Assembly: GCA_964503125.1 (NCBI GenBank)
Contig: CAZCZE010000010.1
Location: 10,682 to 74,681, forward strand
DNA length: 64,000 nucleotides
Reading direction: 5' to 3'
Source: an uncultured Gammaproteobacteria bacterium
GTDB lineage: Bacteria > Pseudomonadota > Gammaproteobacteria > Steroidobacterales > Rariloculaceae
The position numbers were made by a program, and so were the translations under genes. Under the pieces are notes generated by a model. The model worked only from the letters and a program-made list of their open reading frames with translations, made no database searches and was not told where the DNA came from. The stretch's first letter is position 1. Each line of letters opens with the position of its first letter. This document shows positions 3,924 through 55,404 of the stretch, in pieces.

Positions 3924-4574
3924 ATGCCGCCTTTGCTCACGCCGCCGCCCGACGATCCCGTGCTCACTGCGGCGGAGTGGCTCGCCGCAGCCGAAGCGCT
4001 CGGCCGGCGCAACGCCAATGCCGTCGCGCTCGCGACGACGGATGCCGCGGGCAAGCCGTCCGTGCGCATGGTGCTGCTCAAGGAGCTCGCGCCGGCGGGC
4101 TATGCCGTGTTCTATACGAACTACGGCTCGCGCAAGGCTGCCGAGCTCACGGCCACGCAGCGCGCGGCCGGCGTGCTCTACTGGCACGAGCTCGGCCGGC
4201 AGATCCGGTTCGAAGGCGTCGTCGTGCGCTCGCCAGCGGCCGAGAGCGACGCCTATTTCGCCACTCGGCCGTGGCGCAGTCAGCTCAACGCCTGGAGCAG
4301 CCAGCAGAGCCGGCCGCTCGACGATCCCGCCGAGCTCGAGCGGCGCGCCGCAAAAATCGCCGCCGAACGCGCGGCCGACACGGCACGTGCGGCGAAGACC
4401 CTGCCGCGGCCCGACTTCTGGGGCGGCTACCGCCTCTGGTTCGACGCCGTCGAGCTCTGGGTCGAAGGTCAGGACCGGTTTCACGAGCGGCTGCGCTACG
4501 AGCGCCGGCTTACGCGGCGCGAAGAGCACAGCTTCGCGGCCGGCCGCTGGCTCAGGCAGCGCCTGCAACCCTAG
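3924..4574 (+). CDS. pdxH: Pyridoxamine 5'-phosphate oxidase
   Basis: Starts at ATG 3924. Contains ATTDAAGKPSVRMVLLK, YTNYGSRKAAEL, LYWHELGRQIRFEG, YFATRPWRSQL, WGGYRL and a C-terminal ...RLQP, all typical of PdxH. Confidence 0.85.
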   Translation: MPPLLTPPPDDPVLTAAEWLAAAEALGRRNANAVALATTDAAGKPSVRMVLLKELAPAGYAVFYTNYGSRKAAELTATQRAAGVLYWHELGRQIRFEGVVVRSPAAESDAYFATRPWRSQLNAWSSQQSRPLDDPAELERRAAKIAAERAADTARAAKTLPRPDFWGGYRLWFDAVELWVEGQDRFHERLRYERRLTRREEHSFAAGRWLRQRLQP

Positions 4575-4592
4575 GCCGACGGTGGACGACGC

Positions 4593-4778
4593 TTGATTCA
4601 TCTCGCGACGATCACGTGCCCGTACTGTTGGGAAGCCATCGAGATCGCGCTCGACCTGTCGGTCGAGGCACAGCAGCAGGTCGAAGATTGTTCGGTGTGC
4701 TGCCGGCCGATCGTCTTCCGCTATCGGGCCGAGGACGGCGAGCTCGCCGAGCTCGACGTCGAGGCCGAGGGCCGCTGA
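4593..4778 (+). CDS. CPXCG motif-containing cysteine-rich small protein
   Basis: 61 aa with two Cys pairs (CPYC ... CSVCC). TTG start. Its TGA overlaps the ATG of the next gene (ATGA, 4776-4780). Confidence 0.6.
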   Translation: MIHLATITCPYCWEAIEIALDLSVEAQQQVEDCSVCCRPIVFRYRAEDGELAELDVEAEGR

Positions 4779-7351
4779 TGAGGCGCGCCGCCACGATCGC
4801 TTACGCGCTGACCGCCTTCGCCGCCGCCGGCGAGGAGCGTATCGCCGAAGTCCGGCAGGGCACGAACCTCGCCGTCGCGCTCTCGCCCGACGGCCGCACG
4901 CTCGTCGTCGACCTCATGGGCCAGCTCTGGACGCTGCCGGCGTCCGGCGGCGGCGCCGTGCCCGTCACGCCACCGGGCGAGCAAGCCCGGCAACCGCGTT
5001 TCAGCCCCGACGGCACGCACGTCGTTTATCAGCGCCTCGGCGACGGCCAATGGGACGTCTGGCTGCTCGACCTCGCGAGCGGCGAGCAGGAAGCGCTCGC
5101 GACGTCGCCATACGACGAGCGCGAACCGGAGTTCGCCGCCGACGGGCGCTCCGTGGTGTTCGCGGCGAACCGCTCCGGTCGCCATAGCCTCTGGTCGGTT
5201 GCGCTCGACGGCCGAGTCGAGACCGAGCTCACGCACGAGGCGGGCGCGGCCTCGTTCCCGACGATCTCCGAGCACGGGCTCTTGGCCTATGTCGTGGCGG
5301 ACGGCAACGCATGGTCGCTCAAGGTGCGCGCGAGCGACGGCGTGACGACGACGGTGCACACGAGCACGCGGCGGCTGTCGCCGCCGTCGTGGCGCCCCGG
5401 CGGCGGCGTGCTCGTGTTCGGCGAACAAGACTCGGTCGTATCGAGCCAGCTGCGCATGCTGTTGCTCGCCGAGCCGCGCGCGCTGAAAACGCTCAGCGCC
5501 GCCGAGGATCTGTTCGCGTCGCGACCCGCGTGGGTGTCCGGCGCCGAGCTCATCTACGCGGCCGACGGTCAGCTCTGGCGGCGCGGCATCGCGACACCGA
5601 CGCGCGAGCCGATTCACCTCTTCGCCGCCTCGGCCGTCGAGGTCACCGCAGCACCCACGGACCTCGTACCGTTCGACGATCGCGGCGAACGGCCTGCGCT
5701 CGGCGTCAACGCGCTCGCGCGCTCGCCCGATGGCAGGCGAGCCGTTTTCACGGCGCTCGGCGACGTCTGGCTCGTCGAGCGCGGCACGGCGCAGCGATTG
5801 ACCGATGACGCGTTCATCGAGCTCGACCCGGTTTTCTGGCCCGACGGCGAGTCGATCGTGTTCGCCGGCGAGCGCACGGGGCAGTTCGAGCTTTGGCGAC
5901 TCGCGTTGCGCGATCGCCGGCTCACGCAGCTCACGTTCGGCGCGTTGCGGCCGCACCGGCCCGCCGTGCGACCGGACGGCCAACGGCTCGCCTACCTTGC
6001 GACCGCGAGCCTCGAGCCGTGGGGCGGCGCGACGACGCTCGAGGTACTCGACCTGCAAAGCGGCAACCCGATCACGAGGGCCACGGGTGTCGTCGACGGC
6101 CGGGTCCTCACCTGGTCCGAGGACGGCCGCGCCCTTCGCCTGCGCGCGAGCGCGGCCGAGCTGCGTGGCGGCGACCCGAGCATCGAGCTCGACGCTACGG
6201 CCGCAAGCCCCGCCGCGGCCGACGGGACGCCGGGCGCTCCGCCGGCCCCCACCGTGCGCTGGGCTCCACCGGCCGCCCCGCCCGCCTACGTCGTCGAGAT
6301 CGGCCGGCTATTCGACGGCACGCGCGCGACCTATCGCCGGCACGTCGACCTGCACGTGCGCGACGGCCGCATCGCCGCGGTCGTGAGCCGCGGCGCGCTG
6401 CCGCCGCCAGGCCCCGTGATCGACGCGCGCGAGGCCACGGTGATCCCGGGGCTCATCGACGTGCACGCGCACTTGAGCTCGCTCGTCGGCGAACGGCTCG
6501 GGCGCGCGTTGCTCGCCTACGGCGTGACGACGGTCCGAGAGATCGCGCCGCGCCCCGGCGAGAGCCTCGAGCGGGCCGAGACGTGGGCCAGCGGCCGCGG
6601 CCCGGGACCGCGACTCGTCATCACGCCGACGCACGGCGATTCGGCAGGGTTGGCCGCGACGGCTTCACCGATCCGCCCGTACCGCGGCATCGCCAACGGC
6701 TTCGCCCACAGCTTGCGCAACCAAGCGCTGCGGGTCGGCGTGCCGCGGCTCGACGACTACCCCGCGCGCCTGAGTGTCGGTCTTTTGGACTCGAGCAACG
6801 AGCTCGAGCTGTCGCCTGGGCTCGCGGTGTACCAAGACGGCTTCAGTCGCTTCGTCGCTTCGGGCTCGACTTTCGTGACCGGCTTGGCCGCGTTGGCCGG
6901 GGTCGCGCGAAGCCCCCGCCCGGTTCAGGATGCCGCGTATCGGACACTGTTCACGAGCGTCGAGCGGGCAAGCTGGGAGCGGCCAGACGGGCTCGCGGCA
7001 ATGCTGCCGCCGCTCGGGGAGACGGTCGGCCGACTCGTCCGCGCCGGCGGCCGCGTGGCGATCGGCTCCGATGCGCCGGCCGTCCCCTACGGTCTCGGGG
7101 TGCATCTCGAGCTGGCCCTGCTGGCCGACGCCGGCATCGCCAACGACCAACTCCTGCGCCTGGCCACGATCGAGGGGGCTTTGGCGCTCGGCCTCGAGGC
7201 CGAGCTCGGCACGCTCGAGGAAGGCAAGGTCGCGGATTTCGTGGTGCTCGACGGCGACCCGCTGGCCAACATCGCAACCACGCTCGCGATCGCGGCCGTC
7301 GCGAAGGGCGGCGTCTGGTACGACCGCTCGACGCTGCTCGCGACACCCTGA
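4778..7351 (+). CDS. Secreted TolB-like beta-propeller / amidohydrolase fusion protein
   Basis: 857 aa from ATG 4778. Signal-like N-terminus (MRRAATIAYALTAFAAAG). Repeated PD40/WD40-like units (SPDG..VVY, FAADGRSVVF, WPDGESIVFAGERTG, RPDGQRLAY). The C-terminal metal-dependent hydrolase body has GLIDVHAH and IGSDAP motifs. The 1124-aa ORF from 3977 is an out-of-frame upstream extension over pdxH. Confidence 0.8.
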   Translation: MRRAATIAYALTAFAAAGEERIAEVRQGTNLAVALSPDGRTLVVDLMGQLWTLPASGGGAVPVTPPGEQARQPRFSPDGTHVVYQRLGDGQWDVWLLDLASGEQEALATSPYDEREPEFAADGRSVVFAANRSGRHSLWSVALDGRVETELTHEAGAASFPTISEHGLLAYVVADGNAWSLKVRASDGVTTTVHTSTRRLSPPSWRPGGGVLVFGEQDSVVSSQLRMLLLAEPRALKTLSAAEDLFASRPAWVSGAELIYAADGQLWRRGIATPTREPIHLFAASAVEVTAAPTDLVPFDDRGERPALGVNALARSPDGRRAVFTALGDVWLVERGTAQRLTDDAFIELDPVFWPDGESIVFAGERTGQFELWRLALRDRRLTQLTFGALRPHRPAVRPDGQRLAYLATASLEPWGGATTLEVLDLQSGNPITRATGVVDGRVLTWSEDGRALRLRASAAELRGGDPSIELDATAASPAAADGTPGAPPAPTVRWAPPAAPPAYVVEIGRLFDGTRATYRRHVDLHVRDGRIAAVVSRGALPPPGPVIDAREATVIPGLIDVHAHLSSLVGERLGRALLAYGVTTVREIAPRPGESLERAETWASGRGPGPRLVITPTHGDSAGLAATASPIRPYRGIANGFAHSLRNQALRVGVPRLDDYPARLSVGLLDSSNELELSPGLAVYQDGFSRFVASGSTFVTGLAALAGVARSPRPVQDAAYRTLFTSVERASWERPDGLAAMLPPLGETVGRLVRAGGRVAIGSDAPAVPYGLGVHLELALLADAGIANDQLLRLATIEGALALGLEAELGTLEEGKVADFVVLDGDPLANIATTLAIAAVAKGGVWYDRSTLLATP

Positions 7352-7470
7352 TGTCAGCCGCTTTTACGATGAGGGGCTGCGAGCGAACCGGCGGCCACAA
7401 AGGCACCGAAAAGTGCGCGCCCTTGAGAAACAGATGGTTAGCGGGCTTTACTCACCGTCAACACGAATAT

Positions 7471-7500
7471 CGCCGACTAACTAGACTGTCGGGCGGTTTT
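7471..7500 (+). terminator. Weak hairpin plus short T-run downstream of the amidohydrolase gene
   Basis: CGCCGAC-N10-GTCGGGCG followed by GTTTT. The stem is imperfect and the U-tract is short. Confidence 0.3.
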
Positions 7501-7577
7501 ACAGGGCTGCCCTCGTGTTTCACGTAACAGGCTAGCCCATTTCCTTAGCTGGCTGTTTTTGCTGTCCTTTCGCTCCG

Positions 7578-7593
7578 TGGCATGGGTCTTGCT
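7578..7593 (+). promoter_or_regulatory. Candidate sigma54 (RpoN) -24/-12 promoter
   Basis: TGGCATGGGTCTTGCT versus the consensus TGGCACGR-N3-TTGCW. Only one defined position differs (C to T). GG to GC spacing is correct. It is intergenic, about 250 nt upstream of a strong terminator. Predicted +1 is near 7604. Confidence 0.6.
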
Positions 7594-7603
7594 TCACTAG
7601 GGC

Positions 7604-7858
7604 GTCCCGACCCAGGGACTAGTGAGTGCGCAAACAGACAGAAAACGATGCGAATTCGCAAAGGGTTCTGTTAAATTTGAAAACTACACAGAAGAACAAG
7701 AAAGTAGAAGAACAAGAAAAGAAATTGGCTGGACAATAACAACAAGCCGCTCGGCGCTCCTTGCGAGCACAACGAGCAACAGCCAGGCCGCATACTTGAA
7801 ACCGTAAACTCCGATAACAAAAAAATCTGACCCGGCGTTCCCACCGCCGGGTTTTTTC
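7604..7858 (+). ncRNA. Candidate sigma54-dependent A-rich small RNA (CrcZ/CrcY-like architecture)
   Basis: Bounded by the -24/-12 element and the intrinsic terminator. GC is far below the flanks. It holds several A-rich ARN/AAnAAnAA-like tracts: 7631-7646; the 14-nt direct repeat AGAAGAACAAGAAA at 7690-7703 and 7706-7719; ACAATAACAACAAG at 7733-7746; 7768-7782; and GATAACAAAAAAA at 7813-7825. No experimental or homology confirmation was possible here. Confidence 0.4.
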
Positions 7859-7863
7859 TTTTT
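7830..7863 (+). terminator. Rho-independent terminator
   Basis: ACCCGGCG-TTCCCAC-CGCCGGGT, an 8-bp GC-rich stem with a 7-nt loop, followed directly by TTTTTCTTTTT. Confidence 0.8.
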
Positions 7864-7953
7864 GGGGCCCAAAAACCGACGATTCGTGACCGAGGCCCGC
7901 GTGAGCAGAGACGCGCCGTGATCCACTAGCGGCTCCGACGGAAGACGCCTGTA

Positions 7954-8736
7954 GTGTTCAAACGGCTCCGCATCGCCTTCTTGCTCTACCTCCTGCTGTT
8001 CGTGGCGGCCGCGCAGTTCTTCGTCGATCAGCGTACGAAGGATTGGGACGAGCCGCTGTGGGTCGACGTCTACGCGGTCGCCGGCGACAGCGACGAGACC
8101 ACGCGCCGCTACCTCGACAACCTCGACCCCACGGAGTTCAAGGACGTCGAGCCGTTCCTGGCGCGCGAGGCTCAGCGTTATGGCCTCGCGCTCGAGCAAC
8201 CATTCCGCTTGCGACTCGTCGGCGAGCATCGCGCGCCGCTGCCTACCTTAAGCCGAGACGCCGGCGTCCTCGGCATCCTCGGGTGGAGCCTGCGCATGCG
8301 CTGGCTGGCGACGCGTCTTCGCTGGCAGGCCGACGGGCCGGCCGGCGACGTGCTCGTGTTCGCCGTTTTCCACGCACCATCGGCGGGCGTGGCGCTCGAT
8401 AGCTCGACGGCGCTCGAGAAAGGGCTCATCGCCGTGGCCAACGTGTTCGCCGCGCGCGACGCCCGCGCCACGAACCAGATCGTGCTGGCGCACGAGCTCT
8501 TGCATACGCTGGGCGCGACGGACAAGTACGCGCTTGCGACGAACGCCCCGATTTTCCCCTTGGGTTACGCCGCGCCCGACGCTCGGCCGCTGCTGCCGCA
8601 GACGAAGGCCGAGCTCATGGCGGGCAGGATACCCATCGACGAGCGGCGCGCCGAGATTCCCCGCAGCCTCCGCGACGTCGTCATCGGCCCGTCTACCGCT
8701 CTCGAGATCGGTTGGTACAACGCCGGCAAGCCGTGA
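7954..8736 (+). CDS. Membrane-anchored hypothetical protein with an HExxH (HELLH) zinc-metallopeptidase-like motif
   Basis: 260 aa with a GTG start. N-terminal TM segment (IAFLLYLLLFVAAAQFF). The motif LAHELLHTLGATDKY is present. High GC3. No family name recognised. Confidence 0.65.
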   Translation: MFKRLRIAFLLYLLLFVAAAQFFVDQRTKDWDEPLWVDVYAVAGDSDETTRRYLDNLDPTEFKDVEPFLAREAQRYGLALEQPFRLRLVGEHRAPLPTLSRDAGVLGILGWSLRMRWLATRLRWQADGPAGDVLVFAVFHAPSAGVALDSSTALEKGLIAVANVFAARDARATNQIVLAHELLHTLGATDKYALATNAPIFPLGYAAPDARPLLPQTKAELMAGRIPIDERRAEIPRSLRDVVIGPSTALEIGWYNAGKP

Positions 8737-8785
8737 CACCATAAGCCGATCGGCCGAACCGATTCAGCGCAGGGACCGAGCGGCT

Positions 8786-9337
8786 ATGGGGCACCGGCTC
8801 AGCAAAATCTACACGCGCACCGGCGACGACGGCACGACGGGTCTCGCGAACGGGGAGCGCGTGGACAAGTGCGACGACCGCGTCGAGGCCTTCGGCACGG
8901 TCGACGAGACGAACAGCGCGCTCGGCCTGTTGCTCGCAGAGCCTGACCTTCCCGCCGCGATTCGCGCGCCGCTCGCGCGCATTCAGCACGAGCTCTTCGA
9001 GCTCGGCGCCGAGCTGTCATTGCCGGGCTACCGGCAGATCTCGGCCGAGTACGTGGGCCGCCTCGAGCGCGAGCTCGACGCGCTCAACGAGGATTTGCCG
9101 CCGCTCAAGGAGTTCGTGCTGCCAGGCGGCAACCGCGCCGCCGCGATCTGCCACGTCGCCCGCACGATTTGCCGCCGCGCCGAGCGCCGCGCCTTCGCCG
9201 TCGCGAAGATCGCGAGCGTCAATCCAGAGCTCTTGCGCTATTTGAACCGTCTCTCGGACCTGCTGTTCGTGATGGCGCGTTGCCTCGCGCGCCTGGACGG
9301 CGGCGCAGAGGCTCTCTGGCAGCGCGAACCTAAGTAG
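8786..9337 (+). CDS. ATP:cob(I)alamin adenosyltransferase, PduO type
   Basis: Starts at ATG 8786. The N-terminus KIYTRTGDDGTTGL is the hallmark of this type. Also DDRVEAFGTVDE, LQHELFELGAEL and LSDLLFV. Confidence 0.85.
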   Translation: MGHRLSKIYTRTGDDGTTGLANGERVDKCDDRVEAFGTVDETNSALGLLLAEPDLPAAIRAPLARIQHELFELGAELSLPGYRQISAEYVGRLERELDALNEDLPPLKEFVLPGGNRAAAICHVARTICRRAERRAFAVAKIASVNPELLRYLNRLSDLLFVMARCLARLDGGAEALWQREPK

Positions 9338-9893: not shown

Positions 9894-9985
9894 TTTGGTT
9901 CGAGCAATTGCTAAAGTGGGCCGCTATCCCAAGGCGCCACTATAACAGCCCCTCGCTCACCGCCTCGCAACGAGACTTAGGTTTC

Positions 9986-10729
9986 ATGGGACTCGCCAGC
10001 CATCGCCTGCCGCGGCTATTCGTCGAGCGCGAGCTCGACGGCGCGAGCGTGACGCTCGACGACCGCGAGTCGCACTATCTCGGCCACGTGCTGCGCCTTG
10101 CGCGCGGCGACGAGCTCGTGGCGTTCAACGGCCGCGGCACGGAGCGTAGCGCCACGATCGGCTCGTTGCAGCGCCGCGGCGCCGTGCTCGAGTTGCGCGC
10201 AGTGCTCGCTCCCCTGCCCGAGTCGCCGCTCGACCTCACGCTGCTCCAAGCATTGCCGAAGTCCGACGCCATGGACCTCGTGGTGCAGAAGGCCACGGAG
10301 CTCGGCGCGCGCACGCTCACGCCGGCGTTGACGGAATACAGCGTGGTGCGGCTCGATGCGGAGCGCAGTGAGCGGCGCAGCGAGCACTGGCGCAAGATCG
10401 CACGCAGCGCCTGCGAGCAATGCGGGCGGCACCGGCCGCCGACGATCGCGGCGCCGTTGCCGCTGGCCGAAGCGCTTGCGGCGTTGCCGCCCGCGGGCGC
10501 TCGCTTCGCGCTCGACCCTGCGGCCGATCGCCGGCTCGGCGAGCAGGCAGCGCCGACGACCGCGCTGGTCATCGCCGTCGGCCCCGAGGGCGGGTTCGGC
10601 GCCGCGGATTGGCGGCGCCTCGACGCCGCGCAGTTCGTGCGCGTCGCACTTGGGCGGCGAGTATTGCGCGCCGAGACCGCGGCGCTCGCCGCCTGCGCAG
10701 TCGCGCAGACGCTCTGGGGCGACGGCTAG
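9986..10729 (+). CDS. rsmE: 16S rRNA (uracil1498-N3)-methyltransferase RsmE
   Basis: Starts at ATG 9986 (MGLASHRLPRLFVE...). Contains HYLGHVLRLARGDELVAFNG, LLQALPKSDAMDLVVQKATELG, VGPEGGF and LGRRVLRAETAALAA. Confidence 0.85.
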   Translation: MGLASHRLPRLFVERELDGASVTLDDRESHYLGHVLRLARGDELVAFNGRGTERSATIGSLQRRGAVLELRAVLAPLPESPLDLTLLQALPKSDAMDLVVQKATELGARTLTPALTEYSVVRLDAERSERRSEHWRKIARSACEQCGRHRPPTIAAPLPLAEALAALPPAGARFALDPAADRRLGEQAAPTTALVIAVGPEGGFGAADWRRLDAAQFVRVALGRRVLRAETAALAACAVAQTLWGDG

Positions 10730-11210: not shown

Positions 11211-14200
11211 TCACAGCCCTCTGCCGACGAGCGCTTCGATCGCGGCGATGAGCTGACTCTCCTGGTAAGGCTTGCTCAAGTAGTCGTTGACGCCGATCTC
11301 GATGGCCTTCGCGCGATGCTTCTCGCCCGAGCGCGACGTGATCATGATGATCGGCAGCTCTTTGAACCGCGCGTCGTTGCGCACGTGGCTCGCGAGCTGG
11401 TAGCCGTCCATGCGCGGCATTTCGATGTCGAGCAGGATGATGTCCACCGGGTGCTCCTGTAGCACCGTGATCGCGTCGAGCCCGTCGCGTGCCGTGTAGA
11501 CCTTGACGTCGCGCCGCTCGAGCAACCGCTGCGTCACGCGCCGCATCGTGATCGAATCGTCGACGACGAGCGCCGCAAGAGGCGCCTTCGCGGCCGGTTG
11601 CGGCGCAGGCTGCGCGCCCTCGGCCGACCGATGCGCGCGCACGAGCGTGCCGGGGTCGAGGATCATGATGACGCGGCCGTCGCCCAAGATCGTCGCGCCC
11701 GTGACGCCGGGGACGCTCGCGATGTGCGGCCCGAGCGTCTTGACGACGATCTCGCGGCTGCCCTCGAGCGAGTCCATGAGCAGCGCCGTCGACCTGTCGC
11801 CGGCGCGAATCAGCACGAGGGAGACGGCGTTTTCCTCCTCGGGCAGCGCCGAGGGCGCCGCACCGACGAGGCTGCCCAAGTGCTGGATGCGATAGACGAT
11901 TCCGCCGTAATCGAGCTTGGGCTCGTCCTCGGTCAGGTGCTTCAGGATCTTGTCGCGCGACAGGCGCGTGATGCCTTCGACGGTCGGCAACGGCAACGCG
12001 AAAGTTTCGTCGCCGACGTTGACGATGAGCGCGTGCGTGATCGCGAGCGTATACGGGAGCCGGAGCACGAAACGCGTGCCTTGCCCCGTCGTCGTCTCGA
12101 TGCGAATCGAGCCGCCGAGCTTCTTGACCTCGTTGTCGACGACGTCCATGCCGACGCCGCGACCGGCCGTCTGCGTGAGCTCGCTCGCCGTGCTGAAGCC
12201 GGGTTGCAGAATGAGCTCGACGGCCTGCTCGTCGGTGATGTTCTGATTCCCCGCGAGCAAACCCTTCTCGTAGGCTTTGCGGCGAATCGCCGCGAGATCG
12301 AGACCGCCGCCGTCATCGCTGAGCTCGACGATGACCTCGGACCCTTCGCGGCGGATCGCTAGCAACACCTTGCCGGTCTCGGGCTTGCCGCGTTGCCCGC
12401 GCACGGCGGCCTTCTCGATGCCGTGGGCGACGGCGTTACGCAGCAGGTGCTCGAACGGCGGCAGCATGGTCTCCAGGACCTGCCGGTCGATCTCGTTGTG
12501 CTCGCCCTCGACGACGAGCTCCGCGAGCTTGCCCGAATCCGCACAGGCCTGCCGGACGATGCGCTGGAGCCGCGCCACGTGGCGCTGGAACGGCACCATG
12601 CGCGTCCGCATGAGCCCGTTCTGCAAGTCGGCCGTGACGCGCGCTTGCTGTGTGAGCAGCGTATCGGCCTCGTTCGTCAGGCCGTTGAGTAGCTCGTTGA
12701 TGCTTGCCACGTCGTTCGCCGACTCGGCGAGCGCGCGCGACAGCTGTTGAATCGTGGAGTAGCGGTCGAGCTCGAGCGGATCGAAGCTGCCTTGCACCTC
12801 GGCATCATCCTGGTGGCGATGCAGGATCTGCGCCTCGGTCTCGGCCTCGAGCTTGCGCAGCTGGTCGCGCAGCCGCGACACCGTGCCGCCGAGCTCTCCC
12901 AAGTGAAACTCGATCGAATGGAGCTGCTGGGTCAGCCGCGACTGGAAGATGTTGATCTCGCCGGCGCCGTTGAGCAGCGCATCGAGTAGCCCCGCGTCGA
13001 CGCGTGCCGTTTCCGCCCGCTCGGCTGCGCGCTGCTCGACGGGCGTGGCCGCGGGCTGCGGCGCCGCCTCGGCTAAGCGCGGCGGCTCGACGACGCGCGC
13101 CGCCTCGGCCAGCTGCGGCGCCGTCGTGAGCGCCTCCGGCGGCTCGACGATCGTCGCTTCCGCGGCGACGGGCTCCTCTTCGACGACGAGCGGTTCCTCG
13201 ATCGTGGGCTCGTCGATGAGCTCGGCCGCGGCCCGAGCGTCGACGGGCGGCACGTCGGGCGCAGCGAGCTCGATCGATTCGAGCTCGCGCAAATCGGCAC
13301 CCATGAGGTCGTCGATCTCGCCGGCGGCGCCGACTGCGGCCGGGGGCGGCGCTTCGGCCGCTGCGGGTGCGGCGGGGCCGAGGGGCGCGGCGGGCGCTGC
13401 CGGCGTGGCGGCCGCAGGCTCCGCAAAGCCTTCCAGCTCCGCGACGAGGCCGCTCGCCGCGCTCGCGAGTCGACCCGCGTCGATCGCGTCGCGCATGTGT
13501 TGCAGCTCGTCGAGGCCGCGCTGCACGAGATCGAGCGCGGCCGGTGTCGGCCGGCTGCGGCCGTCGGCGACGCCCGCGAGCAGCGTTTCGAGCGCGTGGC
13601 TCAGGTCGCCCATCGCGAGCACACCTGCCATGCGCGCCCCGCCCTTGAGCGTGTGCAGGTAGCGCTGCAGCACGACGACGGATGCCTGATCTTGGCGTTG
13701 CCGCACGTCCTGCAGCGCGCTTTCGGAGTGGTCGAGAATCTCGGCGGCTTCTTCCGCGAAGATCGCCGCGATCTCGGGGTCGAAGCTCGCGGGCGGCGCC
13801 GCGGGCGTGGGCGCCGCAGGGGGTGCCGGCGCGACGCGCGAGACCGCCGCCGGAGGTGCAGCTGCGGCGGGCGCGGCGCGCGCAGCCAAGGCGTCGAGCG
13901 AGGCGAGCGCGGCGGGATCGAGCCGCGCTTCGCGGCCGCCGGACAGTGCGTCGGCCAGCAACCCGATCTCCCGAGCCGCGGACTGCAGCGCGGCGAGCCC
14001 CGCGGCGGTCAACCCCGTGCGGCCTTCGAAGTGGCGGCGCAGGTGCTCCGCGAGGGGCGCCGCGAGCGCCGTCGCGGGCTCGAACCCCGCCATGCGGCCG
14101 CTGCCGAGCAGTGTGTGGCAAGCGCGATAGAGCGGCTCCCCGACGGCGTAGGGCGGGGGCCGGTTGGCCGCGGCAGCCAAGAACTCCTGAATGACGGCCA

Positions 14201-16508
14201 GATGCCCGCGCATCTCTTTGACGAAGATGTCCGCGAGCACGGGATCCATGCCGGGCTCGGCCGCCGGCGCGGCGACGGGCGCCACCACGCGCAGCGATTG
14301 CCCGGTGAGGTTCGCCGCCTCGGGATCGCCCTCGGCGAACGCTTCGGCCTGCTTCATGAGCAGGTGCACGTCGACCCTAGGCGGCAGGCCGACCTCGAGC
14401 TGCTCGAGCAGCTGCGGCAACGCGCTGCTCGCTTCGGTCACGAACGCGATCATCGCGGCCGTCGGCTCGAGCGTCTGGTTGATGACACGGTTGAGCAGGT
14501 TCTCGATGCTCCACGCGAACTCGGCAATGAGCTGAGCACCCACCATGCGGCCGCTGCCCTTGAGCGTGTGGAACGAGCGGCGCGTGGCGATCAGCGCCTC
14601 GGAGTTGTTGCGATCGGCGACCCACAGCGGCAGCGTGCGCTGGATGTTCGCGGTCTCTTCCTTCGCCTCCTCGATGAAGACCTCGACGATCTCGGGATCC
14701 GAGCGGTCTTCCTCGACTTCCATGACGCTCGGCGCGCGCTGCGCGGCTTTAAGCGCCGGCGGGGGCGGAGCCGCGACGGCCGCGGGCTTCGCCACGGGCA
14801 ATGTCTCGAGCAGATCGAGGCAGCGCTCCGCGTTCTCGAGCATGTACCAAGGGTCCGTCCGGCCCGCGCTCAGGGTCTCCAAGTAGTACTCGACGCTGAC
14901 GATCGTGTCGGCGAGCCGCTCGAGATACTCGGGCCGCAGCTTCGTGCCCACGCCGAGCCGCGTCCCGATGACGTTGCCGACGCGCTCCACGACGCTCACG
15001 GCCTTGGTCTTGTCGAGCATCGTGAGACCGGCCACGATGCCGCGCAGCTGCGGCCTGGCGCGCTCGAGTGGCCGCAGATCCGCGGGTTGGTCGACGAGCT
15101 GGATGACGGCTTCTTTGACCTTGGTGAGATTGACGGTGCACTCGCGCATGACGGCTTGCGTGACTTGCAGCGGCTGAGCCTCGCCCTCGGGCGCAGCGTC
15201 CGCGAGCTCCGCGTCGTCGTGGGGCACCACGGCGCGCACGAGCTCACGATCGAGCGTGTCCTCGACGTCGAGCAGCGTCGCGGCAATCTTCTCGAGCGCG
15301 CTCTGATCGATGACCTTGCCGTTGACCACGATCGCGGAGAGCCCTTGGCTCTCGCGCTGGATCTTCGCACGCGCGTTGTCGAGACCGAGAACGCCCAGCG
15401 TGTCGCCGATCTTCTTGAGCATGTCGAGCTGCGGCGCGAGCTTGTCGACGGCCTGCATGCCCGTGCGCACGAAGATGTCGAGCGCGTCCTTGACCGTGCC
15501 GAGATCCTCCTTGATCGCTTCGGCGACGGTGCGCATGAGCTTGACGCTCGGACCCGACAGGCCTTCGCGCGCCTGCTCCACTTGGAGCTCGCCGGGCAGC
15601 ACTTCGCCCAAGTTGTACTGTTTGCGTAGCGCCTCGAGGCGCGGATCGGCCGAGCTCGCGCGCGCGACGTAATAGAGGAGGCTATTGATGAGCTCGACGG
15701 GCGGCGCGCTCACGAGCGCCGACTCGCCACCGTCCGCGAGCCGTTTGAGCTGCCGGTCGGCCTGGCCGATGAGCCGTTTCAGCGTGACGCTCGCCTCGAG
15801 GCCGCCGCCGCGAATCGCGGTGAGCACGCCCGTCATGACCGTCCAGAGCTGCCTGACCTGCTCGCTCACCGCGGCGCGCTCGAGGTTGGCGGCGACACGC
15901 AGCAGCTCGTCGAGGTGACGCCCGGACTCCGCGCCCTTGATCCAACCGAGCAGCGCGGCCTGGAACGGCGGCCGTAGCCGGTGAGCGAGCTTCTCGAGGC
16001 CGTGCGCGACGGGGGCGCCCGCAGGCGCCGCGGCTCGCGGCACCGCGTGGCGCTCGAACGGGCCCGAGTTGAGCAGGACGAGCGTCCCTTCCGAGAGCGC
16101 GGGCTTGTCGCGCGCGTGGCGCAGATCGTTGAGTAGCGGCAACAGGGCGAGCGCGATGTCCTTGCCACCGCCGACGAGGCGCTCGAGGTAGGCCGGCAGC
16201 TGCACCATCGCGCGGGTCAGCGCCTCGATCCCTTTCTCGGCCTTGTGCGGGTCGGGCGACTCGGCGAGCCGGCGGCACGTCTGCTCCATCTCTTCCGCGA
16301 GCAGCGCTGCGCCGTGAATCTCGACGATCTTGAGCGCACCGCGTGCCGCGTGCAGGTGGTCGGCTGTGCGCAGCAGCGCATCGGCGGTCGCGCGACCGTC
16401 GACGTACTCCTCGAGCTGCGAGCGCGCCGCCTCGAGCGTCGTTGCGAGCTCGCGGTTCACGAGCTCGAAGGCATGCGTGGCGAGATCGTCCATCGCTCGA
16501 GTGGCCAT
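11211..16508 (-). CDS. chpA: Hybrid multi-Hpt CheA-type histidine kinase of the type IV pilus Chp system (ChpA/PilL)
   Basis: 1765 aa. At least four Hpt-type motifs are visible (LHAARGALK, FHTLKGSGRMVGA, CHTLLGSGRMAG, LHTLKGGARMAG). Long Ala/Pro-rich linkers. HATPase region (LLRNAVAHGIE, DDGGGLD, GRGVGMDVV). A CheW-like domain. A C-terminal receiver (LVVDDSITMRR...DIEMPRMDGY...SKP). Confidence 0.9.
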   Translation of the reverse strand: MATRAMDDLATHAFELVNRELATTLEAARSQLEEYVDGRATADALLRTADHLHAARGALKIVEIHGAALLAEEMEQTCRRLAESPDPHKAEKGIEALTRAMVQLPAYLERLVGGGKDIALALLPLLNDLRHARDKPALSEGTLVLLNSGPFERHAVPRAAAPAGAPVAHGLEKLAHRLRPPFQAALLGWIKGAESGRHLDELLRVAANLERAAVSEQVRQLWTVMTGVLTAIRGGGLEASVTLKRLIGQADRQLKRLADGGESALVSAPPVELINSLLYYVARASSADPRLEALRKQYNLGEVLPGELQVEQAREGLSGPSVKLMRTVAEAIKEDLGTVKDALDIFVRTGMQAVDKLAPQLDMLKKIGDTLGVLGLDNARAKIQRESQGLSAIVVNGKVIDQSALEKIAATLLDVEDTLDRELVRAVVPHDDAELADAAPEGEAQPLQVTQAVMRECTVNLTKVKEAVIQLVDQPADLRPLERARPQLRGIVAGLTMLDKTKAVSVVERVGNVIGTRLGVGTKLRPEYLERLADTIVSVEYYLETLSAGRTDPWYMLENAERCLDLLETLPVAKPAAVAAPPPPALKAAQRAPSVMEVEEDRSDPEIVEVFIEEAKEETANIQRTLPLWVADRNNSEALIATRRSFHTLKGSGRMVGAQLIAEFAWSIENLLNRVINQTLEPTAAMIAFVTEASSALPQLLEQLEVGLPPRVDVHLLMKQAEAFAEGDPEAANLTGQSLRVVAPVAAPAAEPGMDPVLADIFVKEMRGHLAVIQEFLAAAANRPPPYAVGEPLYRACHTLLGSGRMAGFEPATALAAPLAEHLRRHFEGRTGLTAAGLAALQSAAREIGLLADALSGGREARLDPAALASLDALAARAAPAAAAPPAAVSRVAPAPPAAPTPAAPPASFDPEIAAIFAEEAAEILDHSESALQDVRQRQDQASVVVLQRYLHTLKGGARMAGVLAMGDLSHALETLLAGVADGRSRPTPAALDLVQRGLDELQHMRDAIDAGRLASAASGLVAELEGFAEPAAATPAAPAAPLGPAAPAAAEAPPPAAVGAAGEIDDLMGADLRELESIELAAPDVPPVDARAAAELIDEPTIEEPLVVEEEPVAAEATIVEPPEALTTAPQLAEAARVVEPPRLAEAAPQPAATPVEQRAAERAETARVDAGLLDALLNGAGEINIFQSRLTQQLHSIEFHLGELGGTVSRLRDQLRKLEAETEAQILHRHQDDAEVQGSFDPLELDRYSTIQQLSRALAESANDVASINELLNGLTNEADTLLTQQARVTADLQNGLMRTRMVPFQRHVARLQRIVRQACADSGKLAELVVEGEHNEIDRQVLETMLPPFEHLLRNAVAHGIEKAAVRGQRGKPETGKVLLAIRREGSEVIVELSDDGGGLDLAAIRRKAYEKGLLAGNQNITDEQAVELILQPGFSTASELTQTAGRGVGMDVVDNEVKKLGGSIRIETTTGQGTRFVLRLPYTLAITHALIVNVGDETFALPLPTVEGITRLSRDKILKHLTEDEPKLDYGGIVYRIQHLGSLVGAAPSALPEEENAVSLVLIRAGDRSTALLMDSLEGSREIVVKTLGPHIASVPGVTGATILGDGRVIMILDPGTLVRAHRSAEGAQPAPQPAAKAPLAALVVDDSITMRRVTQRLLERRDVKVYTARDGLDAITVLQEHPVDIILLDIEMPRMDGYQLASHVRNDARFKELPIIMITSRSGEKHRAKAIEIGVNDYLSKPYQESQLIAAIEALVGRGL

Positions 16509-55083: not shown

Positions 55084-55404
55084 GTGATGAGGGCCATGAC
55101 GAGCAACAAAAAAACTTCGCGCAAGAAAACGAAGCGCACGACGACGCATGCCGTGCACGTGACAGGGCGCAGCAGACCCTTAAGTAGCCTCGCCGACGAG
55201 TGCCTGGTCAGCTACTTCGAGAGCTTGAACGGCCACAAGCCCGGCGACCTCTACCAGCTCGTCATCGGCGAGGTCGAAAAACCCTTGTTCCGCGCCGTTT
55301 TGGGCTATACCAAGGGCAACCAAAGCGAGGCTGCCGAGATCCTCGGCATCAACCGCGGGACGCTGCGCAAGAAGCTCAAAGACTACAAGCTTCAGGGTCG
55401 ATGA
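55084..55404 (+). CDS. fis: DNA-binding protein Fis
   Basis: C-terminal [29 protein letters not shown], preceded by [18 protein letters not shown]. The exact start is uncertain (GTG 55084, ATG 55087 or ATG 55096). Confidence 0.85.

Follow-up and report, generated by a model that had tools for sequence, protein, structure and literature searches.

The 64,000-nucleotide (nt) window analysed here, from contig CAZCZE010000010.1 of an uncultured gammaproteobacterium of the Rariloculaceae, has an overall GC content of ~70% and carries in an intergenic gap at 7352-7953 what is almost certainly a stand-alone noncoding RNA gene. As an earlier note on this DNA had stated, the GC content of the gap is far below that of its neighbours (~0.49-0.53 vs ~0.70 in the flanks); the gap has a strong A excess on the + strand, and all strings quoted in that note were recovered at their positions. 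The RNA and its two flanking genes are arranged as follows.

3977-7351, + strand: long open reading frame (ORF) with PD40 beta-propeller repeats and a C-terminal amidohydrolase domain (Pfam); 5' flank of the gap.
7604-7863, + strand: small RNA (sRNA), ~258 nt; 5' end predicted from the promoter, 3' end within the U-run 7852-7863.
7954-8736, + strand: 260-aa protein with an HExxH motif and no Pfam family; 3' flank of the gap.

With the 260-aa protein as query, 80 syntenic loci were collected from species-representative genomes, all of uncultured Gammaproteobacteria and, where labelled, of Woeseiaceae, Candidatus Rariloculaceae and similar groups. The RNA lies outside Pseudomonas, as had been proposed, its nearest labelled relatives being uncultured Gammaproteobacteria, Candidatus Rariloculaceae and Woeseiaceae. 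When the gap sequence was used as an nhmmer query, nearly all of it aligned in 15 loci (E 1e-104 to 1e-20); at one of them, L046, the flanking protein is merely 51% identical, yet the gap scores 1e-87. The RNA is nearly invariant in >100 genome and metagenome contigs whose flanking proteins are 50-75% identical, at least 120 metagenome contigs contain an exact 22-mer of it, and its carriers comprise about 50 species-level genomes of Woeseiales-like and other uncultured Gammaproteobacteria. Judged by its sequence, the RNA is under very strong selection. Conservation takes two forms along the gap (alignment A2): short conserved blocks between free sequence 5' of 7578, the pattern that would be expected for protein-binding DNA, and near-continuous conservation from ~7604 to 7863, as would be expected for a functional RNA.

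A covariance model built on close homologues (R2) scores 299 bits at 7603-7861 (E 3e-92); this is the sole copy in the window, each locus holds one copy, and the predicted fold has a z-score of -3.85. The contig ends of L096 and L088 gave no pointer to the transcription start. The proposal of an independent sRNA gene rather than a coding gene is thus borne out by conservation, by the covariance model and by a broken ORF. The comparison that the earlier note had called for, an alignment of the syntenic gap in relatives, retained the -24/-12 element, the A-rich tracts and the terminator, and did not retain the 61-aa ORF.

The region 5' of the RNA contains a sigma54 promoter and an ordered set of conserved elements.

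7353-7369, + strand: distal upstream element TGTCAGCCGCTTTTACG (TGTCAG-N5-TTTACG), beginning 2 nt past the amidohydrolase stop codon.
7413-7418, + strand: conserved GTGCGC accompanying the box at 7427-7441 (alignment A2).
7427-7441, + strand: box GAAACAGATGGTTAG (GAAACAG-N4-TTAG) between the distal and proximal elements, conserved blockwise (alignment A2).
7487-7503, + strand: proximal upstream activator site TGTCGGGCGGTTTTACA (TGTCGG-N5-TTTACA; core GTCGR-N5-TTTACAA).
7546-7558, + strand: IHF-like box TAGCTGGCTGTTT, with one mismatch to the family motif YAA-N4-YTGWWW, between activator site and promoter.
7578-7593, + strand: sigma54 -24/-12 promoter TGGCATGGGTCTTGCT; predicted +1 ~7604.

The -24/-12 match had been noted before and is confirmed at 7578-7593; as TGGCAY-N4-CTTGCT it is invariant among the homologues of clade A, to which the window belongs. 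Its occurrence in the window is less improbable than had been claimed: TGGCACG-N4-TTGCW with <=1 mismatch gives three matches vs 0.46 expected, and the core TGGCA-N6-TTGC gives one vs 0.22 expected, with at least one in 21 of 100 shuffles. The significance of the promoter therefore derives from its conservation in homologues rather than from window statistics. The two further sigma54-like matches (23745 and 40702) lie in GC-rich, coding-like sequence without an upstream activator site and were discarded as chance. In 1.24 Mb of related DNA, 126 of the 128 sites matching TGGCAY-N5-TTGCW directly precede this RNA, so the -24/-12 feature that it shares with the Crc RNA architecture is nearly exclusive to it there.

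Promoters of the sigma54 class require an enhancer-binding activator, and the layout that goes with this dependence is present: a GG-N10-GC core, an activator site ~100 bp upstream and an IHF-like box between them. The proximal activator site, centred ~105-110 nt 5' of the predicted +1, is the sole exact match in the window; its core GTCGR-N5-TTTACAA is kept in clades A and B, and in 104 of 106 promoters TTTAC and TGGCA lie a constant 79-82 nt apart. Clade A carries TTATGTAAS to the left of the core, giving the full form (TGTAAS-N7-)GTCGR-N5-TTTACAA, together with a second copy, TGTCAG-N5-TTTACG, ~135 bp above the proximal site. This second copy is the distal element of the window; every clade A locus examined has it at -226 to -229 relative to the promoter, and it is a candidate distal activator-binding site. 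The motif YAA-N4-YTGWWW occupies a fixed position, -32 to -34 from TGGCA, in 57 of 115 distinct promoters vs 0.5% of shuffles, and the box at 7427-7441 also resembles an IHF site (WATCAR-N4-TTR). No other promoter combining the same activator site with a sigma54 core was found in the window or in the 1.24 Mb of related DNA. A sigma54 promoter with enhancer-type upstream sites, as suggested earlier, is hence borne out by conserved elements at fixed spacing; the two palindromes then named as activator sites (7403-7416 and 7516-7529) are present but not conserved, which rules them out as functional elements (alignment A2). On this sequence evidence, transcription of the RNA is very probably sigma54-dependent.

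Two further clades extend the family. Clade B comprises about 36 Woeseiaceae-type loci with a TGGCACAGGTCTTGCT promoter just 3' of the PD40-amidohydrolase gene and the same activator site core at the same distance. Its RNA is ~205 nt long and of other sequence, built on the same plan: a long-range helix, supported by compensatory changes, forms around loops rich in AAN (AGAAGAACAAUAACUACAAAAACAAGAAG and AAUAAUAAUAAU among them), and the 3' part consists of an A-loop hairpin followed by the terminator. The clade B model (R1) finds a sole match in the window, at 7640-7861 (32.7 bits, E 3e-4). Because synteny and promoter are shared, we regard the clade A and clade B RNAs as diverged orthologues. 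Clade C keeps the 3' half, the AAN tracts, the invariant 3' block described below and the terminator, and lacks TGGCA-N6-TTGC. An AT-rich segment (e.g. TAATAGGTAAT) replaces the -24/-12 element in this clade, which suggests a promoter swap within the family.

Clade C copies: L009 1105-1384; L011 2610-2893; L013 2619-2893; L070 2618-2891; also L101, L115 and L116.

Single loci show structural variants. At L072 (1344-1467) a clean internal deletion has removed the whole A-rich domain (124 nt vs ~206) and left the promoter, the 5' part, the A-loop hairpin and the terminator; either a natural loss of function or an error of assembly could account for it. After the clade B RNA, the terminator hairpin unit GCCCCGCC...GC-TTTTTATTT stands in tandem two to three times at L034 (~1930-2050), and at L043 (~1150-1250) the unit occurs once more directly after the RNA.

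The RNA of the window folds into helices that separate unpaired, A-rich segments.

7604-7619, + strand: 5' hairpin GUCCC-GACCCA-GGGAC; all 4 pairs covary, e.g. GCCUC/GAGGC, GACCC/GGGUC.
7637-7672, + strand: stem-loop 2, ACAGAAA..(UGCG-loop-CGCA)..UUCUGU, then invariant UUAAAUU (helices 3 and 4).
7690-7725, + strand: main A-rich tract, a tandem 16-nt unit, predicted unpaired.
7727-7784, + strand: domain closed by a GGCUG/CAGCC helix (7727-7731 with 7780-7784); in helices 6 and 7 all pairs covary.
7785-7826, + strand: invariant block AGGCCGCAUACUUGAAACCGUAAACUCCGAUAACAAAAAAAU, 42 nt, predicted unpaired; includes the third A-rich tract, 7813-7825.
7829-7863, + strand: intrinsic terminator with stem ACCCGGCG/CGCCGGGU, loop UUCCCAC, then UUUUUUCUUUUU (helix 10).

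Helices were derived with RNAalifold and from pair counts on 101 distinct homologues. Changes on both sides occur in 23 of 50 pairs, and none of 500 shuffles attains any of the observed measures, in an alignment fitted to the covariance model, which favours structure; independent MAFFT alignments show the same compensatory changes by eye. Within the domain 7727-7784, the AAUAACAACAAG tract (7733-7746) is unpaired and 7747-7779 form an internal hairpin. The crossing helices that had been drawn at the 5' end (7583-7588 with 7609-7614, and 7594-7600 with 7619-7625) did not hold up: they involve bases ahead of the predicted +1 and are not kept in homologues, in which the 5' structure is the hairpin 7604-7619. 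The intrinsic terminator, in contrast, is confirmed in position and conserved, with a stem of 8-9 bp (7829/30-7852/53), a 7-nt loop and then TTTTTTCTTTTT; stem and loop are invariant in clade A, and clade C differs at the first loop base alone (CUCCCAC).

Between the terminator and the closed domain lies the 42-nt block, which is invariant in alignments A3 and A6, also beyond the 22-mer used for the metagenome search, and unpaired in the centroid structure. Its segment AGGCCGCAUACUUGAAACCGUAAACUCCGAUAAC (7785-7818) is invariant in clades A and C. The block contains an anti-Shine-Dalgarno-like ACUCC and is a candidate seed or protein-binding platform.

Three unpaired AAN/ARN tracts are placed between the helices of the predicted fold: 7690-7725, 7733-7746 and 7813-7825. 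The first contains the 14-nt direct repeat AGAAGAACAAGAAA (7690-7703 and 7706-7719), and this tract also includes AAGAACAAGAAA with four AAN triplets and AAGAACAAGAAAAGAAAU with six consecutive ARN triplets, the number that fills the distal face of one Hfq hexamer (PMC4063720). The motif AAnAAnAA occurs seven times in the window RNA vs 1.2 in dinucleotide shuffles, and 5-13 times per homologue in all three clades vs ~1. Across the 64-kb window it is found 15 times on both strands (3.15 expected), 7 of the 15 lying on the + strand of the RNA. In the tract columns of 63 homologues, triplet positions 1 and 2 are ~100% A and position 3 is variable; the tract sequences themselves diverge while the 3-nt period persists, so selection acts on periodicity and not on a particular sequence. 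The Hfq distal face is known to recognise RNA by such AAN periodicity, and the proximal face binds a 3' U-tail. On these sequence features, the RNA probably binds Hfq through its AAN tracts.

Several unpaired AAN/ARN tracts, as originally envisaged, are therefore supported by motif counts, periodicity and the predicted fold. The A-rich strings listed in the earlier note are all correctly placed; their unpaired status does not stand for those at 7631-7646 and 7768-7782, which lie partly within conserved helices. The six AAnAAnAA motifs outside the RNA are not at gene starts, and the two inspected lie within coding sequence. A Lys/Thr-rich N-terminal coding segment at 55085-55180 (+ strand) carries one motif from outside the RNA.

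The combination of sigma54 promoter, AAN tracts and terminator matches the CrcZ-like architecture first proposed for this gap, since the promoter, the unpaired AAN/ARN tracts, the terminator and the noncoding status are all supported. CrcZ is a 407-nt RNA with six A-rich stretches that binds the Hfq distal face and titrates Hfq (PMC4063720), and the crcZ and crcY promoters share a layout of upstream activator site, IHF site and sigma54 element (PMC6296734). The RNA described here resembles CrcZ/CrcY/CrcX in its sigma54 promoter, upstream activator site and IHF-type site, in its several unpaired AAnAAnAA tracts, Rho-independent terminator and lack of coding capacity, in its fixed place directly 3' of one particular gene, and in Hfq distal-face occupation, which is predicted for it (PMC4063720, PMC6296734). 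It differs in being ~258 nt rather than 407 nt long and in carrying the extra invariant 42-nt unpaired block, and it has a PD40-amidohydrolase gene, not cbrB, on its 5' side. The absence of an adjacent cbrB had been noted before and is confirmed; the window also holds no GAFTGA-type activator gene.

Homology to CrcZ/CrcY/CrcX, by contrast, found no support. The whole window has no match in Rfam 15 at the gathering score; at E<=10 the interval 7300-8000 gave only terminator-driven chance matches and no Crc family, and ten related loci, including clades B and C, likewise gave no Crc-family match. Among the chance matches is one to anti-hemB, rejected at 19.8 bits vs a cut-off of 49.5. By these searches the RNA is without detectable sequence or structure homology to CrcZ. 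The CbrB site has been defined as TGTTAC-N12-14-GTAACA-N15-19-GTAACA, and CbrAB is reported to be restricted to Pseudomonadaceae (PMC8871633). The conserved site GTCGR-N5-TTTACAA is unlike that published consensus, and a reading as a CbrB site is ruled out (PMC8871633); GTAACA occurs once, at 7524-7529, and is not conserved. Because the activator site is not a CbrB site and no cbrB lies nearby, the RNA is not a CrcZ homologue. We classify it as a putative CrcZ analogue, independently evolved or unrecognisably diverged, that founds a new RNA family.

The features assembled above are best explained by a sigma54- and activator-dependent sRNA that would occupy Hfq and free A-rich mRNAs, as an analogue of CrcZ; we hold this explanation in even balance. 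A sigma54 activator, presumably switched on by a nutrient-limitation signal, would most likely bind GTCGR-N5-TTTACAA ~105 nt upstream, and in clade A also the second site ~135 bp further, probably assisted by a bend at the IHF-like site. Transcription would start from the promoter at 7578-7593 and end at the invariant terminator 7829-7863, and the RNA would accumulate. It may then occupy Hfq through several distal-face (AAN)n sites and its proximal-face U-tail, so that Hfq would be withdrawn by mass action from A-rich mRNA sites and translation de-repressed. Withdrawal by mass action is the mechanism shown for CrcZ in Pseudomonas (PMC4063720). That the RNA acts mainly as an Hfq titrator is possible, at a little short of an even chance.

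Several observations weigh against this explanation. The invariant 42-nt unpaired block and the invariant terminator loop are superfluous for simple Hfq titration; left unexplained by it, block and terminator suggest an additional or different function, such as a base-pairing seed or a specific protein partner. Among 59 full-length homologues, about 10, those of clade C, retain the RNA but show no recognisable -24/-12 element, so that sigma54 control does not extend to the whole family. The 64-kb window holds no activator gene (GAFTGA, Walker motifs), no hfq and no crc. Candidate Hfq-repressed mRNAs would be marked by (AAN)n at their translation-initiation regions, and none was found at those of the other window genes, a test of low power in 64 kb.

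The main rival, somewhat unlikely in our assessment, is a class II Hfq-dependent base-pairing sRNA, in which the ARN tracts and U-tail would serve as an anchor and the block 7785-7826, with its ACUCC, would pair with ribosome-binding sites; sigma54 control would then place it in a nutrient-stress regulon, like the NrsZ, NfiS or Qrr RNAs. It is the main rival because the invariant block, predicted to be single-stranded, suggests a seed and because target tests in 64 kb have little power. Class II sRNAs such as ChiX and MgrR are defined by ARN motifs and a U-tail, both of which the RNA has. Those of enterobacteria (ChiX, MgrR, CyaR) also share with it a conserved single-stranded possible seed; they differ in having sigma70 promoters, a length of ~80-100 nt and usually one ARN block, whereas this RNA has a sigma54 promoter, is ~258 nt long and carries at least three blocks, including a full 18-nt site. 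Three to five AAN tracts with ~20 triplets and one full 18-nt site exceed the need of an anchor and resemble CrcZ (PMC4063720). Complementarity to the block of at least 10 nt is no more frequent in the window than for shuffled blocks; the sole non-self match of that length is 10 nt long, pairs with the poly-A tail of the block and lies in coding sequence (55105-55114), in a 64-kb search of little power. The Woeseiaceae version, moreover, lacks the block 7785-7826 and keeps its AAN tracts. Sponge and pairing roles are compatible, and the two may coexist in this RNA.

Less probable again, and in our view improbable, is a decoy for a protein other than Hfq (a RapZ-like adaptor, ProQ, ribosomal protein S1 or another), with the A-rich tracts as linkers and the invariant 3' block plus terminator hairpin as the recognised element. 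Terminator stem, loop and adjoining block are indeed invariant or nearly so across lineages with ~50% identical proteins, a degree of conservation that ordinary terminators do not show, and GlmY provides a precedent as a sigma54-dependent protein-decoy sRNA (PMC7073468). The A-A-N period kept despite diverging tracts is, however, the signature of the Hfq distal face and not of linkers; no GGA-loop repeats for CsrA were found in the RNA, and Rfam returned no match to GlmY/GlmZ or other decoy RNAs. GlmY, activated by GlrR/QseF with IHF, is likewise sigma54-driven from a promoter with a conserved enhancer site upstream, and sequesters a protein rather than base-pairing (PMC7073468), as this RNA may. 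It differs in mimicking GlmZ to trap RapZ and in lacking AAN tracts. The GlrR site is TGTC-N10-GACA, which the upstream site of this RNA does not match. Rfam is assumed to hold models for GlmY, Qrr, NrsZ and Pxr, and none of these matched the window RNA.

It is very improbable that the RNA acts in cis, as leader or attenuator of the HExxH gene, or that it is a processed 3' untranslated region of the amidohydrolase gene. The RNA always lies on the strand of both neighbours, it stands directly 3' of the PD40-amidohydrolase gene in 72 of the 77 contigs with enough upstream sequence, and part of Pseudomonas CrcZ arises by processing of a cbrB read-through transcript (PMC5113210). Against these points, the RNA has its own conserved sigma54 promoter and strong terminator, and no alternative anti-terminator pairing is conserved. 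The downstream HExxH gene, present in 81 of 106 contigs, is absent in 25, the gene 3' of the RNA otherwise being a methyltransferase or amidase; this variation argues against a leader of the downstream gene. The linkage of the sRNA to the PD40-amidohydrolase gene is tighter than that to the downstream gene and recalls the linkage of cbrB and crcZ, and read-through or processing from the amidohydrolase mRNA is conceivable.

Of negligible probability is a small protein encoded by the GTG-start ORF of the window, whose coding reading is ruled out by equivalents of 10-79 aa with frameshifts and premature stops in 50 homologues, by the absence of a Pfam match and by conservation at the nucleotide level, with compensatory base-pair changes.

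7622-7807, + strand: 61-aa ORF with GTG start, broken in homologues; not a gene.

For this putative Hfq-occupying sRNA, the nearest published parallel outside Pseudomonas is sRNA99 of Acinetobacter baumannii, remarked on for its three AAN motifs and for behaving toward Hfq like CrcZ in RNA interaction by ligation and sequencing (RIL-seq) (PMC12802169). The likeness lies in being an sRNA outside Pseudomonas with AAN motifs; sRNA99 belongs to another organism, and the passage on these motifs mentions no sigma54 promoter. A literature search returned no described equivalent in Woeseia or other Gammaproteobacteria.

CrcZ-type regulation, by which a sigma54-induced RNA sequesters Hfq and so relieves catabolic genes of translational repression, has been regarded as a speciality of Pseudomonas and Azotobacter, with CbrAB described as unique there (PMC8871633, PMC6296734). 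With some hesitation, we suggest that the RNA and its Woeseiaceae counterpart may be the first Hfq-titrating 'catabolite-control' RNA family outside Pseudomonadaceae, under another sigma54 activator. If so, control of the CrcZ type (induction of a sigma54-dependent decoy RNA by a nutrient signal, with release of Hfq-repressed mRNAs) either arose independently or is far more widespread than has been assumed, and the decoy would gain from its invariant 3' block a second role in base pairing or protein recruitment. That an unrelated RNA of CrcZ design is under strong selection in many carriers points to a strategy of wider occurrence. In soils and marine sediments, few Gammaproteobacteria are more abundant than the carrier lineages, for which almost no genetics exists, and the RNA offers an entry point into post-transcriptional nutrient control in these dominant organisms: its defined promoter (activator site, IHF-like box, sigma54 core) provides a route to the activator and its signal, the family allows a test of CrcZ-type Hfq titration outside pseudomonads, and its alignment is ready for conversion to an Rfam model.

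Further observations concern the surroundings of the RNA. Between its terminator and the 260-aa gene, the boxes TCGTGAYC (7884-7891) and GTGATYCACTA (7918-7929) are kept in clade A (alignment A2) and might serve the HExxH gene as promoter or operator. The 260-aa protein carries an invariant AHELLHTLxAxDKY (HExxH) motif and an N-terminal hydrophobic segment, has >1,400 homologues at E<=1e-10, and probably represents an uncharacterised metallopeptidase-like family. The gene that follows it encodes a cobalamin adenosyltransferase (8534-9337). No riboswitch was detected in the window (Rfam, gathering score), though this gene is present, and a scan of the window for tRNA and tmRNA gave no match. 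Woeseiaceae loci have cobalamin riboswitches ~2.5 kb 3' of the HExxH gene.

Cobalamin riboswitches: L036 5514-5765; L028 5478-5750; L060 5500-5771; L053 5489-5766.

Further downstream in the window, an rsmE-like RNA methyltransferase gene (9908-10729) adjoins a gene on the - strand (11211-16508) for a 1765-aa ChpA/PilL-like protein with Hpt, histidine-kinase, CheW and receiver domains, which suggests a chemosensory cluster of the Pil-Chp type.

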